From an uncultured Lachnospiraceae bacterium (GTDB taxonomy: Bacteria; Bacillota; Clostridia; Lachnospirales; Lachnospiraceae), in NCBI GenBank assembly GCA_948909305.1, contig CAQWRG010000005.1:4716-68715 (forward strand): DNA of 64,000 nucleotides, read 5' to 3'. The translations under genes were made by a program, and so were the position numbers. The notes beneath the pieces were generated by a model. That model saw nothing but the letters and a program-made list of their open reading frames with translations. It did no database searches and was not told the DNA's origin. Position 1 is the first letter of the stretch. Each line of letters begins with the position of its first letter. Positions 50,630 through 54,875 of this stretch are shown here, piece by piece.

Positions 50630-51643
50630 ATGGAAAAGGAAAATAATCAGGCGCTTTATGAAGGAGAGGATGCCGGGCGCGCCATAAGCCGTTTATATGA
50701 TCCGATAATGCGGAATGATAAATCCGCATTGGAAAAAGCGCTTCAGATTTTAAGCGACAATACCTATGAAATGGCGGCAAAAAGGCTTCGCGCATATGGC
50801 ATATGCCAGCCGGAAGCGTTAGATGATGTGATGCAGGAAATCCGGATGGAAGTGATGAAGCTGGCGTTTCGCGGGTTTCCTGAAAAAGTGACGTCAGAAG
50901 GGTTTTATGGGTATTTGATCGGGTTGGCGGAAATATGCTGCCAAAATTACAGAAAGAGGCATTTTGCAAAAAAGGAATTTATACCGAAAGAGCCGGAAAA
51001 CGGTATATTCGAAACAGGCGGTGAATCGGAACAGATGGAAAGCGCTTATATCGAACAGGAACGGTTATCCGTGATACGCCGCATATTTGAGTTTTATGTA
51101 AAAGCGCTGAAAGAGACGAAAGCCCCGCCTTATCAGACGCTTACCTACTGTTATGCTATTTTGGTTCCACAGCTAATAAAACGAACTGACAACAAAGAAC
51201 TGTTGAAAAAATTAAACGTAATTGGCGCAAGGAAAACAGATGGGGATGCTTCGCGTTACAATGAAAAAACAGGCAGGCTTGAAGGAGAAATCACTAGAAA
51301 CAGCGTGATACTGATGAACTTTGCCATATCCGCAATGTATCGGCAGACGTCGGAACTGTTAAACCGGGAGTTTTTGGAAATTTACCATTTAGAGCCGCTT
51401 AGCGAAAGTCAATTCCGGTGGGGAAGGGCTTATGAGGAAAATATGGAAAAAGAATATAAGGGCAGTCCGGTCAAACAGCTTGTCATCACAGATACATTTT
51501 CCAAAAACGCAATGAAAAATTGGCCGCTTCGGATAGCAAAAAACCTGAAAAATGAAACAGAAAAACTTGCTTTAGCGGATAATATATTCCGTAAAAAAAG
51601 CATTGGCATAGCAGAGGATATCTTTTGCAGGCGGGAGGGTTAA
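50630..51643 (+). CDS. Hypothetical protein, possibly a sigma-70-like region-2 protein (cognate of the downstream ZAS protein)
   Basis: The N-terminus LYDPIMRNDKSALEKALQIL...PEALDDVMQEIRMEVMK weakly resembles sigma-70 region 2. No clear region-4 HTH. Sits directly upstream of a zf-HC2 protein. Confidence 0.35.
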   Translation: MEKENNQALYEGEDAGRAISRLYDPIMRNDKSALEKALQILSDNTYEMAAKRLRAYGICQPEALDDVMQEIRMEVMKLAFRGFPEKVTSEGFYGYLIGLAEICCQNYRKRHFAKKEFIPKEPENGIFETGGESEQMESAYIEQERLSVIRRIFEFYVKALKETKAPPYQTLTYCYAILVPQLIKRTDNKELLKKLNVIGARKTDGDASRYNEKTGRLEGEITRNSVILMNFAISAMYRQTSELLNREFLEIYHLEPLSESQFRWGRAYEENMEKEYKGSPVKQLVITDTFSKNAMKNWPLRIAKNLKNETEKLALADNIFRKKSIGIAEDIFCRREG

Positions 51644-52225
51644 ATGCACATATCAGAGGAGGATCTTAGGAATCTTTCAGAAGCTTATGTAAAAGAGGAA
51701 CGTTTAAATGACAGGCAGTTAGAGTTAAAAAAACATATGGCGGATTGTGACCGCTGTTATGAGATATTCTGCGCGCAGTATGTGTTGCAAAAACAATTAT
51801 CTGCGCATGGTTTACTGCCGCCGGAATCAGAAAAGAGAGTTGTTTTTGCCCTAAAAGCAGCGGCGGGAATCTATGAAATGATACAGCAAAAAAAGGAAAC
51901 GTTTCATTCAAACTGGGAATTTGTCCGCCTGCCAATGCCTGCCGCATCCAGAAGCGGCGGCAAAAAAATGCAGACAGAAACATTTATCAGCAGAAAGGGC
52001 GAGTATTCTTTCATAGAATGCAGTCAAACACAAGTTGTGATTCAGTTTGATGCAGAGGAATTTTCCGCTGGCGCTTTCGTTGTCAGGGTTCAGACGGATC
52101 ATGGTGAAAAAACGTATGATTTTGTTTACCATGCGGACAAAGACTGTTATCAGGTTATCCTAAATACGGAAGAATTTCATGGGGAAACTGTGATAGAAAT
52201 TATTGAGGATGCAGATGGAAACTGA
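51644..52225 (+). CDS. zf-HC2 (ZAS) anti-sigma-factor-like protein
   Basis: N-terminal ..LSEAYVKEERLNDRQLELKKHMADCDRC.. carries the H-x3-C-x2-C motif of zinc-dependent anti-sigma factors. Confidence 0.55.
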   Translation: MHISEEDLRNLSEAYVKEERLNDRQLELKKHMADCDRCYEIFCAQYVLQKQLSAHGLLPPESEKRVVFALKAAAGIYEMIQQKKETFHSNWEFVRLPMPAASRSGGKKMQTETFISRKGEYSFIECSQTQVVIQFDAEEFSAGAFVVRVQTDHGEKTYDFVYHADKDCYQVILNTEEFHGETVIEIIEDADGN

Positions 52226-54875
52226 CAGAAATGAATTCTTCCGTTGGCTTGATGCCACGGCAAAAGCAGAGCGGAAAGGAAACATAAAAAAAGCGTTCCG
52301 ATGCTTAAAAAAAGCCAGACAAACGGCTTTTTTGGGTTCACAGGCGTATAAAGACTGGATTGTGGAATATAATACGTTAATTTTACATCTGCTATATGAT
52401 AAAAAAGCGGATATGGATTTTCTCTGCAATGCGTTAAGCCGGCATTTGGCGCAGGCAAAAGAATCTGTGGAACTGCCATTTTCTCTTATAAAAGAGATGT
52501 ATATCAGAGGTTTGGCACATATACTCCAAAAACAGTATGGGAGGCAGGAATCGTTTTCCGGTTATGAAGGTCTGGCGAACGAATTGGCGGAGTTTGTGGA
52601 ACGGGAACGGCGGTATGAGTTAGACGGGGAAGATCTGTATGCTTTTGTATATGGGGCGCTTGGCGTTTTTTATGCAAAAACGGGAAAAACGTCACTTGCG
52701 GAAGCTAGCCTTGAAAAAGTATTTCTGCATTTGGATAGGCAAGAACCTCTGTCACAATATGCGTTTTGCGCGCTTGTCCATCTGGCGCATCAGTATGTGT
52801 TTTCCCGTAAAGCTGTTCAGGCAGAGACAGTTTGCCGTTTTCTGTTGGATAAGCTTGCCGCAAAAGAAGCAATACGTCCATTTATGCTGGATATACAAAG
52901 GCTTGTGGCGGATTATGCCGTTTTGTTGGAAACGATGCTTCGCTCTGACGAAGCATATGCGTTTATCCGGAAATGCGTGGAATCGGGGTTTGTCCGGCGC
53001 GTTTGCAAAGAGGATTATATGTTATATGTGTATGGCAGTTATTTATTGCAAATGGATCAAAAGAACCAAAAGATTCCTAAAAAGCAGATTAGGGAAATTG
53101 AAAAAGTAAAAAAGCAAATAAATCAGGACAGGGAGTTTTTGAGCTACGCGCCATGGGCGCGCAGCAGTTTTTATCAGTTTTGCTATTATTTTGAAAAGGC
53201 GCTTGGAGGCCGGTATCCGATGCATTATCTGGATAAAAGCATTCTTACGCTTATGAAAGCGGAGATTTTTGAGGTGGACAGGCAAGCATATTTTTCTATT
53301 ATGGGAAGGGCTATATGCGAGTATAAGAAGAATGCGGACGAAAAAAAACTGCTTTGGTGCGCGGGCAGTTTATTGGAAAAGATGGCTGAGTTTTATTCCA
53401 TGGCGGAGTATTACGAGGACAACGCGCAGATGGAACAGTATTTAACCATTTGCAAGGCGGCGTTTCATTTGGCGTATGCGGCTGTGATGGACGTCACGTC
53501 TTCTGAAAAAAGGCTGGAATATAGTATAAATTATAAAAATATCCTTTGTTCTGTACTGCGCGCCAGAAATCGATGCTCTGGCGCAGCCCGCAGGGTGAAA
53601 CGAAAAGGGGAGATTCCGTATTATTCATACCAAAAGTTAGAAGAACAAATGCCAGAACATGCCGTTTTAGTAGAGTTTTTATATATGGATCGGGAGGCGG
53701 TTTGGTCTGGGAATGCCGTTTCGGCTACGAAAAAAGATGTATGTCTGGAAATATTTGTAAAAAGAAAAGGAAAAGCGCCTGTCTGCCGGAGAATCGAAAA
53801 AATCTTTGACTTGGAAGAAGGCATACAGAGGTTTCTTCAATGCGTCAGGGATGCGAAAGGGAACTGCAAAAAATTTGCAAGGGAACTATTTTGCCATATA
53901 TTCGGAGAATTAGAGACGGAATTAAAAGATGCCGGGCAAATCTGGGCGTCTCCGGATCAATGTCTTTGCAATCTTCCGTTTGAAGTTTTGTTTGAAGCTG
54001 CGGATAGCGGATATTTTGGGATTCCAGTCGTTTATTTTCAATCTTTCCGGGATATTTTTGAAGTTTGGCAAGAAGGGAATCCTTCAATGAAGAAATCTTG
54101 TATCATAGGAAATCCTGCGTTTTGCCTGTCAGAAAATAGAAATCTGACAGGGCAGAATGCATCGCTCCGCTATATTCAGGAAATTTCGCCGCTTCCGTTC
54201 AGTGGTTATGAGGCAGAAAAAATAGCGGATTTTTTCGGTGGTGAATGCTATGTCGGGAGGGCAGTTTCCAAACGCCGGTTAAAACCCGGATACCGTTTTT
54301 TACATATTGCCACCCATGGGATACATATGCAGGAGAAGGAGAATCCATGGTATGAAAGTTCGCTCGCATTTTCCGGAATGCTAGATTATTTACAAACAGG
54401 AAAAGAATCTTTTGAATATGGGGACGGGATATTAACAGCGGAAGAAATAAGCAGAATGCAGTTGACGGGGACAAAGTTAGCGGTTTTGTCTGCCTGTCAT
54501 TCCGGCAGCAGCCTGTTTACGAAATTTGAATGGCAGACAGGGCTTCATGTGGCGTTTGGCGCTGCGGGAGTTCATTATGTCGTCTCTGCTTTGTGGGAAG
54601 TAGATGATTTAGCGGCGGCGCTTTTTATGTTTTATTTTTATGAAAGATTAAATCAGGGGGATTTGATTCCGGCAGCGCTTCAGTCTGCGAGAAAAAAACT
54701 GAGGGACACAACAGTGGGACAGGTAAAAGAGAGGCTTACATCCGATCAAAAGTTTTTTGAGAACATACAAGAAGATGTTTTTTCTTACATGGAAGGGCTT
54801 TGGGACGACTTTTTACTTTACCGTTCGCCGAAACATTGGGGGAGTTTTATCTGTTATCAATATAGGGGCAGTTAG
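52215..54875 (+). CDS. TPR-repeat protein with a C-terminal CHAT (caspase-like) protease domain
   Basis: The N-terminal ~600 aa is helical and TPR-like. The C-terminal region RFLHIATHGIH...KLAVLSACHSGSS matches the CHAT His/Cys dyad. Start was chosen at the ATG at 52215 (GAGGA RBS). The track ORF begins at a TTG at 52203. Confidence 0.7.
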   Translation: METDRNEFFRWLDATAKAERKGNIKKAFRCLKKARQTAFLGSQAYKDWIVEYNTLILHLLYDKKADMDFLCNALSRHLAQAKESVELPFSLIKEMYIRGLAHILQKQYGRQESFSGYEGLANELAEFVERERRYELDGEDLYAFVYGALGVFYAKTGKTSLAEASLEKVFLHLDRQEPLSQYAFCALVHLAHQYVFSRKAVQAETVCRFLLDKLAAKEAIRPFMLDIQRLVADYAVLLETMLRSDEAYAFIRKCVESGFVRRVCKEDYMLYVYGSYLLQMDQKNQKIPKKQIREIEKVKKQINQDREFLSYAPWARSSFYQFCYYFEKALGGRYPMHYLDKSILTLMKAEIFEVDRQAYFSIMGRAICEYKKNADEKKLLWCAGSLLEKMAEFYSMAEYYEDNAQMEQYLTICKAAFHLAYAAVMDVTSSEKRLEYSINYKNILCSVLRARNRCSGAARRVKRKGEIPYYSYQKLEEQMPEHAVLVEFLYMDREAVWSGNAVSATKKDVCLEIFVKRKGKAPVCRRIEKIFDLEEGIQRFLQCVRDAKGNCKKFARELFCHIFGELETELKDAGQIWASPDQCLCNLPFEVLFEAADSGYFGIPVVYFQSFRDIFEVWQEGNPSMKKSCIIGNPAFCLSENRNLTGQNASLRYIQEISPLPFSGYEAEKIADFFGGECYVGRAVSKRRLKPGYRFLHIATHGIHMQEKENPWYESSLAFSGMLDYLQTGKESFEYGDGILTAEEISRMQLTGTKLAVLSACHSGSSLFTKFEWQTGLHVAFGAAGVHYVVSALWEVDDLAAALFMFYFYERLNQGDLIPAALQSARKKLRDTTVGQVKERLTSDQKFFENIQEDVFSYMEGLWDDFLLYRSPKHWGSFICYQYRGS

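Follow-up and report, generated by a model that had tools for sequence, protein, structure and literature searches.

Does a caspase-like protease in the cytoplasm of a gut bacterium switch on a sigma-like protein by way of a soluble anti-sigma factor? The question is raised by three consecutive genes in a 64,000 nt stretch of DNA (the window) from contig CAQWRG010000005.1 (GCA_948909305.1) of an uncultured Lachnospiraceae bacterium. The genes encode a protein with a domain corresponding to region 2 of sigma factors (X), a small protein with a motif of the zinc-containing anti-sigma (ZAS) type (Y) and a protein in which a helical solenoid precedes a CHAT protease domain (TPR-CHAT). Judged from gene order and gene junctions, X, Y and TPR-CHAT form a conserved, co-transcribed cassette rather than a set of chance neighbors, and we consider it about an even proposition that this cassette works as a cytoplasmic, proteolysis-gated switch of the sigma/anti-sigma type.

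The cassette lies within a run of co-directional genes on the plus strand that extends from ~23.6 to 61.5 kb of the window (Table 1). The ATG of Y abuts the TAA stop codon of X with no gap, and the ATG of TPR-CHAT is located within the end of Y, so that the two genes overlap by 11 nt (the mechanical open reading frame, ORF, of TPR-CHAT starts from a TTG at 52203). Upstream, the stop codon of a ClpP gene lies one base 5' of the ATG of X. Strong Shine–Dalgarno sites precede each of the three genes (GGGAG for X, GGGAGGG for Y and GAGGA for TPR-CHAT). On this sequence evidence, the junctions between X, Y and TPR-CHAT are those of translationally coupled genes. No transmembrane segment was found in X, Y or TPR-CHAT (hydropathy maximum KD19 1.0–1.3).

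Related loci were mapped using BLAST and hidden Markov models (HMMs), with flanking sequences taken from metagenome and genome contigs. The X family comprises 14 clusters at 90% identity in a set of 5.8 billion, and the full-length CHAT family comprises four; all four matches in named genomes are to metagenome-assembled genomes of Lachnospiraceae or Eubacterium sp. In loci with the arrangement of the window or close variants of it (type A), X and Y are adjacent in all 11 distinct lineages despite differing flanks, and Y is directly downstream of X, or of its distant relative X2 described below, in every locus with an intact X or X2 and downstream sequence. The order X–Y–CHAT is found in the window and in L002, L004, L010, L014, L015 and L007, the last with a Sel1 gene inserted between X and Y, while L016 has the order CHAT–X–Y directly 3' of genes for GAP1, a HerA-like ATPase, a transglutaminase and a lectin. 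In L012, X–Y is followed by the end of the contig ∼470 nt after Y, which places any downstream partner beyond view. In L017 and L018, X–Y is followed by a TY-Chap homolog, located 5' of a VirD4-like ATPase gene, and then by ClpP, with no CHAT gene within 10 kb. Since these two loci retain TY-Chap, VirD4-like and ClpP genes, a proteolytic partner is present throughout. The VirD4-like ATPase and ClpP genes are 5' of X in the window, L007 and L015, and ClpP adjoins both the VirD4-like gene and X–Y in the window, L007–9, L015, L017 and L018; overall, a VirD4-like homolog is present in five type-A lineages, with ClpP adjacent in all five. The conserved partners of X–Y are thus proteolytic and ATPase genes: CHAT, ClpP and the VirD4-like ATPase.

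A second gene order emerged from distant relatives of X. In an exhaustive profile search, 132 representative clusters (50% identity) proved to be relatives of X, with a close relationship in 23. The distant relatives (X2) are ∼320 residues long and lack an insert of ∼35 residues, but share the N-terminal and C-terminal regions of X; their matches to Sigma70_r2 are again weak. Metagenome contigs were scanned for such type-B loci with a seven-sequence alignment, as the diversity of one with 22 sequences from the broad family was too high for a locus scan. The scan returned 62 loci, 18 of which are on contigs named as human gut metagenome assemblies. The order TPR-CHAT, X2, Y2, a 264-residue protein and a VirD4-like ATPase is seen in most loci with enough flanking sequence (∼38 of the 62), as is the VirD4-like homolog itself. 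The type-B TPR-CHAT proteins are ∼1180 residues long and match both the CHAT and TPR models of Pfam, and Y2 was found with the profile of the window Y family. The genes that follow the VirD4-like ATPase vary, encoding a Prok-JAB protein, a DEDDh exonuclease or a protein with an L7/L12 C-terminal domain. Across types A and B the cassette genes occur together in more than 70 loci; in two gene orders, TPR-CHAT is thus robustly associated with sigma2-like and ZAS-like proteins and with a soluble coupling-protein-like ATPase. The 264-residue protein (L020 7680–8477 and homologs) has no Pfam or PADLOC matches, and a relationship to TY-Chap was rejected at an hhalign probability of 0.07%. One low-coverage contig carries an in-frame X2–Y2 fusion ORF of 557 residues (L045 4361–6034), and X2 or CHAT is split into two or three ORFs in several type-B loci (L025, L061, L065, L067, L068, L071, L073, L078 and L080); these fused and split genes are either decaying copies or assembly errors. 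Relatives of X were not found in the phage, plasmid and IMG/VR collections, nor relatives of X2 in IMG/VR; a phage or plasmid origin was rejected on the result for X.

The third gene of the cassette encodes, according to its structure model, a TPR-CHAT protein of the separase/craspase type with the solenoid packed against a C-terminal CHAT domain. Residues 1–453 (52215–53573) form the solenoid and residues ∼472–886 (53628–54872) form the caspase-like domain, which matches Pfam CHAT (PF12770) with 132.4 bits against a threshold of 24 (E = 2.9e-38), as expected from the ATHG…LSACHSG signature that had been noticed originally. The catalytic residues are located in the motifs HIATHG (His697, 54303–54305; His701, 54315–54317) and LSACHSG (Cys761, 54495–54497). 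All three are invariant in an eight-member alignment and also across the two subfamilies, in 36 of 36 full-length homologs, so that the expected conservation of the catalytic histidine and cysteine (His701 and Cys761) holds. Its sequence thus assigns the protein to the clan CD cysteine peptidases with the His–Cys dyad intact. In the model (pLDDT 83.4, pTM 0.74), ∼20 antiparallel helices lead into the CHAT domain. Its fold matches, with the values obtained in parentheses, are craspase TPR-CHAT/Csx29 (7y83_D, 27.1, 560; 7y9x_B, 25.2, 585), separase (23.6), the anti-sigma DdvA (8rot_B, 17.5, 462), gingipains (16–17) and ordinary TPR proteins (12–15). A search of PDB sequences with the CHAT family profile found no relative, and no Csx29, at E = 0.01. 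The protein had been described as 887 residues long with ∼600 residues of TPR-like helices. It has 886 residues, as the stop codon had been counted; the helices are borne out by the ∼20-helix solenoid of the structure model, which is the source of the TPR-like assignment, while no TPR was matched by sequence in the N-terminal ∼450 residues of the window protein and only one of eight family members has such a match.

Y consists of an N-terminal region of ∼60 residues that holds an HHCC motif of the ZAS type (His2, His31, Cys35 and Cys38), a variable linker and an acidic, β-rich C-terminal domain of ∼80 residues. The H-x3-C-x2-C element that had been pointed out in this ORF is present as H31-M-A-D-C35-D-R-C38 (51734–51757), with His2 at 51647–51649 and a further cysteine, Cys43, at 51770–51772. 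The window has 79 ORFs of 100 or more residues, in which this pattern occurs twice against 0.14 expected, a weak signal when taken alone. Conservation adds to it: Met1, His2, His31, Cys35, Cys38 and Cys43 are among the residues that are invariant in 11 type-A homologs, and the motif is found at residues 31–37 in 36 of 36 distinct full-length Y and Y2 sequences. In 14 representatives of both subfamilies, which share ∼20% identity, the only invariant residues are Met1, His2, Leu11, His31, Cys35, Cys38, Cys43, Arg103 and Gln134. Arg103 (51950–51952) is the sole invariant residue of the linker in both subfamilies, with Phe93 near-invariant. The ligand positions resemble those of known HHCC and CHCC ZAS domains, such as RslA, which is of the HHCC type, and DdvA, with ligands Cys6, His28, Cys32 and Cys35 (PMC11506125). 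An adjoining, co-transcribed gene for the sigma partner, as is usual for ZAS proteins, is also found here in that of the sigma-like X, as Y begins directly after X and this adjacency is conserved. Matches of the C-terminus of Y to α-crystallins in a profile search of the PDB (E = 0.3) were rejected as not significant.

X contains a sigma region-2 domain in residues ∼15–116 (50672–50977). The weak region-2-like N-terminus that had been reported for X was recovered by several routes: four of 15 family members match Sigma70_r2 weakly, an NCBIfam ECF (extracytoplasmic function) sigma model matches residues 52–121 weakly (E = 0.001), and the structure model adopts a sigma2 fold; window X itself has no Pfam matches. 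When compared with PDB sequences, the profile of the X family retrieves ECF sigmas only (E = 0.004–0.011), and its alignment to sigmaE runs across region 2 and the linker and breaks off after the first region-4 helix. The C-terminal ∼200 residues form a family-specific helical region with the invariant motifs TYCYA and KNWPxR. X is a sigma2-domain sigma-like protein; it is not filed as an ECF sigma because region 4 is not recognizable by models, profile or fold search. An interpretation of residues 167–254 as a degenerate region 4 carrying a 35-residue insert, prompted by the lack of this insert in the X2 family, was discarded: the helix that would serve for recognition is acidic, and the idea found no support from any tool.

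The cassette probably belongs to a larger operon that also includes TY-Chap, VirD4-like ATPase and ClpP genes upstream and a gene for a protein related to the major vault protein (MVP) downstream, with the TY-Chap gene probably the first. The three upstream genes overlap as a triad (48232–50628, +). The VirD4-like ATPase matches Pfam T4SS-DNA_transf (1.5e-36) and, below cutoff, the NCBIfam CD1115 family (2.3e-69); it has the Walker A sequence GSSGSGKT and lacks an N-terminal transmembrane segment, its likely start being an internal ATG at 48744 of a mechanical ORF that begins at 48648. ClpP, with its triad Ser94/His119/Asp170 located by motif, is probably an accessory protease of the cassette, and the VirD4-like protein may be a previously undescribed ATPase partner for it. 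A conserved 30 nt motif upstream of the TY-Chap gene has one exact occurrence in the window against zero expected and recurs in L007/8/9 and L015 at the matching position 5' of the VirD4-like gene, which makes it a candidate promoter or operator of the operon. A search 5' of X for a promoter shared across all lineages yielded only this motif, common to the three closest lineages, and a scan for promoter and terminator consensus sequences gave no improvement over shuffled sequence. An A/G-rich 22 nt tandem repeat (48029–48148, 5.4 copies, 84% matches) lies in the 244 nt gap 5' of the TY-Chap gene and just precedes the 30 nt motif.

Table 1. Positions of the cassette genes, the adjoining upstream genes and the conserved upstream motif in the window.
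Feature	Position	Strand	Remarks
X, sigma-like protein, 337 aa	50630..51643	+	
Y, soluble anti-sigma-like protein, 193 aa	51644..52225	+	
TPR-CHAT protease, 886 aa	52215..54875	+	From ATG 52215
ClpP-family serine protease subunit, 197 aa	50035..50628	+	Pfam CLP_protease 4.9e-47
Soluble VirD4/TraG-like P-loop ATPase (T4 coupling protein family), ~438 aa	48744..50060	+	
TY-Chap1/YbjN-like peptide-binding chaperone, 171 aa	48232..48747	+	Pfam TY-Chap1 3e-07, YbjN 3e-04
Conserved 30 nt motif TTGAGTAAAT-N10-CCGCCATATA	48171..48200	+	31 nt 5' of TY-Chap ATG

The MVP-like protein (797 residues, 54887–57280, +) contains an MVP shoulder domain (Pfam, 4.9e-21) and a weak match to the Vault repeat/SPFH; its gene starts 12 nt after the stop codon of TPR-CHAT and is absent from all other X–Y loci. 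Further upstream, genes at 24970–36495 (+) encode HSP70, HSP70 with vWA, a 1005-residue zinc-ribbon protein, a DO-GTPase-like protein, GAP1-N2/GAP1-M and a transglutaminase. Such a set of genes corresponds to what has been called the 'HSP70 theme' of GAP1-N2 GTPase-centric conflict systems, in a description that does not include the X, Y or CHAT genes (Kaur et al., 2020). The GAP1-N2/M and DO-GTPase-like genes are 15 kb upstream of the cassette in the window and GAP1 is directly upstream in L016, while GAP1 and DO-GTPase genes are absent within 10 kb in L004, L017 and the type-B loci. Regions 36520–47988 and 57295–61467 (+) encode predicted surface or secreted proteins with C-type lectin domains, YARHG, BspA-type leucine-rich repeats, Big_2, Listeria–Bacteroides repeats and CarboxypepD_reg, among which genes for a Ser/Thr kinase, a radical SAM enzyme and a cytidylyltransferase are interleaved; these three recur upstream of the cassette in L007/L009, and of the three only the cytidylyltransferase does so in L015. 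Two overlapping ORFs (43345–44118 and 44100–44744, +) are apparently one frameshifted gene for a Sel1/DUF4190 membrane protein, of which an intact 351-residue homolog is present in L001 (5953–7008), directly upstream of a CHAT gene that lacks X–Y. A cobalamin riboswitch is located at 17486–17676 (+; Rfam RF00174, 97 bits, E = 5.9e-23).

Three known systems come closest to the cassette: DdvA–DdvS, the type III-E craspase module and CalpL–CalpT–CalpS. In the first, from Myxococcus xanthus, a ZAS anti-sigma is fused to a periplasmic TPR-CHAT and the ECF sigma regulates a CBASS–CRISPR island (PMC11506125). DdvA is a single transmembrane polypeptide with its TPR-CHAT in the periplasm and an incomplete active site, whereas the ZAS-like protein and TPR-CHAT of the cassette are separate, soluble and predicted to be cytoplasmic, with neither fusion nor transmembrane segment and with the dyad intact. 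The sigma partner of the cassette, unlike DdvS, has no recognizable region 4. DdvA-like proteins have been reported only in Myxococcota and one Comamonas (PMC11506125); the cassette is hosted by Firmicutes and has a VirD4-like ATPase and ClpP in place of RseP. The type III-E craspase module consists of Cas7-11, Csx29 (TPR-CHAT), Csx30, Csx31 and RpoE, and Csx29 cleaves the RpoE-binding protein Csx30 (PMC9825189, PMC10028731). Y carries a ZAS motif, unlike Csx30 as described. No candidate for Cas7-11/gRAMP was found in the window, as no ORF exceeds 739 residues at 1–23 kb and the genes at 23.6–63 kb have other Pfam identities, and in ∼70 related loci no gene of Cas7-11 size adjoins the cassette except CHAT itself. 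No CRISPR family reached the Rfam gathering score in the window, where no dedicated scan for CRISPR arrays or repeats was made. Because Cas7-11 and sequence similarity to Csx29 are both lacking, the activation signal of the cassette must differ from that of craspase.

The CalpL–CalpT–CalpS system of type III CRISPR combines a SAVED–Lon protease, an anti-sigma and an ECF-like sigma (10.1101/2024.05.08.593097; PMC11417357). The cassette is likewise a tripartite set of protease, anti-sigma and sigma-like effector, for which we propose the same signaling step, proteolysis of the anti-sigma. CalpL is of the Lon type with a cA4-binding SAVED sensor, whereas the protease of the cassette pairs a clan CD CHAT domain with a TPR solenoid, and a cyclic-nucleotide sensor or cyclase is not evident. 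Regulated proteolysis of RseA in the sigmaE pathway ends in degradation of the anti-sigma fragment by ClpXP (PMC9825189); similarly, if the anti-sigma were first cut at a specific site and ClpP then removed the fragment bound to the sigma, the position of ClpP beside X–Y would be explained. In contrast to RseA/sigmaE, the cassette has no membrane step and no ClpX, and the ATPase beside ClpP is of the VirD4/TraG (FtsK–HerA) family, a pairing for which no description was found. PADLOC has no model for X, Y or the 264-residue protein, and the core genes gave only weak matches, to BovA and mad8. The former is to Borvo (BovA), a single-gene CHAT-protease defense system without sigma or anti-sigma partners; the match (26.9 bits, E = 5.6e-7) covers residues 737–853, only ∼120 residues of the catalytic domain. 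The type-B CHAT proteins have no PADLOC matches. The combination of CHAT, sigma-like and VirD4-like proteins is undescribed in the full-text literature searched, an incomplete collection in which nothing relevant to TY-Chap, GAP1 and CHAT was found either. By analogy, the cassette is probably a case of protease-controlled sigma/anti-sigma signaling as in known conflict systems, independent of CRISPR and with split genes and a non-canonical sigma.

In the proposed switch, the N-terminal zinc-binding (HHCC) anti-sigma-like domain of Y would keep X inactive; we infer that Y binds both zinc and X. TPR-CHAT would remain off until its solenoid senses a signal, possibly together with the VirD4-like ATPase and the TY-Chap adaptor. 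This signal would most plausibly be an invader or stress cue, because the neighboring genes are those of a conflict system. The active protease would then cut the variable linker of Y. Arg103 is a candidate P1 residue, since it is the sole invariant residue of the linker. Where it is encoded, ClpP would degrade the residual anti-sigma fragment, and the released X would bind RNA polymerase through its sigma2 domain and alter transcription. We favor a protease that acts on the anti-sigma over a ZAS protein that activates the protease because of the precedents of DdvA–DdvS, craspase–Csx30–RpoE and CalpL–CalpT–CalpS.

Several observations weigh against this proposal. On the side of Y, the match to Pfam zf-HC2 (PF13490; 13.4 bits, E = 0.085) is below the gathering score of 22.2, the model reaches E ≤ 1 in three of seven family members (best 0.01), and neither full-length Y nor its N-terminus retrieved an anti-sigma in profile searches of the PDB, so that the putative ZAS assignment comes down to motif, position and context. 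The proposed cut is affected as well. Y is the presumed substrate, with X or a third protein as alternatives, and the sites at which craspase cleaves Csx30 are not conserved (PMC11106740), which makes a conserved arginine as the cut site a guess. L001 encodes a CHAT protein of the window family without X–Y. As regards the output, no regulon motif was found in the window, where the conserved 30 nt motif is single. The absence of region 4 from X, as stated in the original prediction, stands: none of 15 family members matches region-4 models (Sigma70_r4), a profile of the C-terminal half retrieves nothing from the PDB, and thus no sigma, and neither a region-4 structure nor a helix-turn-helix (HTH) is present among the fold matches. 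Residues 226–260, the segment of the would-be recognition helix, are acidic with a net charge of −3. Because region 4 or an HTH is undetected and this helix would be acidic, X may be unable to read a −35 element or may not act as an initiation factor.

These last features lead to an alternative in which X, once freed from Y, would act as a sigma2-only effector or decoy that binds RNA polymerase and blocks the housekeeping sigma site on the β′ clamp, shutting down transcription in the host and causing an arrest resembling abortive infection. A sigma2 fold without detectable sigma4 or HTH in 15 members, an acidic segment where the recognition helix would be, the same architecture throughout the large X2 family and conflict-system genes in the neighborhood are all consistent with it. 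It is nevertheless an unlikely alternative, as the X family profile can be aligned with sigmaE over the linker and first helix of region 4, and the conserved C-terminal domain of ∼200 residues with its invariant motifs points to a specific function, which could be to bind DNA in a non-canonical way. The original prediction hinted at redox- or stress-gated activation of the protease, a suggestion that drew no support from the present results. In a redox or thiol switch of this kind, an RsrA-like Y would free X on oxidation of its zinc cysteines, for instance when an anaerobe meets oxygen or reactive oxygen species, and CHAT would be a downstream effector or unrelated to the release. The HHCC motif and the extra Cys43 are invariant, the host is an anaerobic Lachnospiraceae, and a second input through attack of reactive oxygen species on the ZAS domain was considered by the authors of the DdvA study (PMC11506125). 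However, zinc in ZAS-type domains may be structural or functional and the motif does not predict redox sensing (PMC11506125); a redox switch would also leave the strictly conserved protease, ATPase and ClpP partners without a role, and we regard it as improbable.

A similarly low likelihood applies to a securin-like arrangement in which Y, or X–Y, would be a pseudo-substrate inhibitor or chaperone of a separase-like CHAT and the output would be cleavage of other targets (MVP-like or cellular proteins) rather than transcription. The resemblance of TPR-CHAT to separase notwithstanding, the MVP gene is missing from every other locus, and the constant pairing of a sigma2-domain protein with a ZAS-type protein would go unexplained. 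Finally, the HMM scores of X and Y are sub-threshold for the window sequence taken alone, which could be taken to indicate misannotated neighbors with a fortuitous H-x3-C-x2-C. This is extremely improbable, since adjacency is kept in more than 70 loci that differ in their flanks and show two gene orders, the motif and the catalytic dyad are invariant, and stop and start codons overlap or abut; chance adjacency is excluded.

A wider claim, which we offer tentatively, is that the cassette represents a previously undescribed, chromosomal signaling or defense system of four to six components that is common in gut Lachnospiraceae, in which a CRISPR-independent, craspase-like TPR-CHAT and a soluble ATPase of the type IV coupling protein kind (with ClpP in one subtype) would control a new sigma2-only family via a soluble HHCC anti-sigma, with non-canonical promoter selection or direct inhibition of RNA polymerase as the output. 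Protease-released sigma factors are a recently recognized output arm of bacterial immunity (craspase–Csx30–RpoE, CalpL–CalpT–CalpS and DdvA–DdvS). To our knowledge, every case characterized so far is linked either to CRISPR or to an anti-sigma in the membrane. The hypothesis lends itself to direct testing, as a protease, its likely substrate and a candidate residue for cleavage have been defined, and a sequence-specific, signal-activated protease could serve as a tool, as craspase does. The VirD4-like protein and ClpP are a candidate new ATPase–ClpP pairing. For the family of X, at least 132 clusters (50% identity) of sigma2-domain proteins without recognizable region 4 raise the question of how, or whether, promoters are read. 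If the proposal is correct, the logic of protease-released sigma factors would operate as a free-standing cytoplasmic module in abundant Firmicutes of the human and mouse gut, with a craspase-like protease that must be triggered by a cue different from a crRNA complex.

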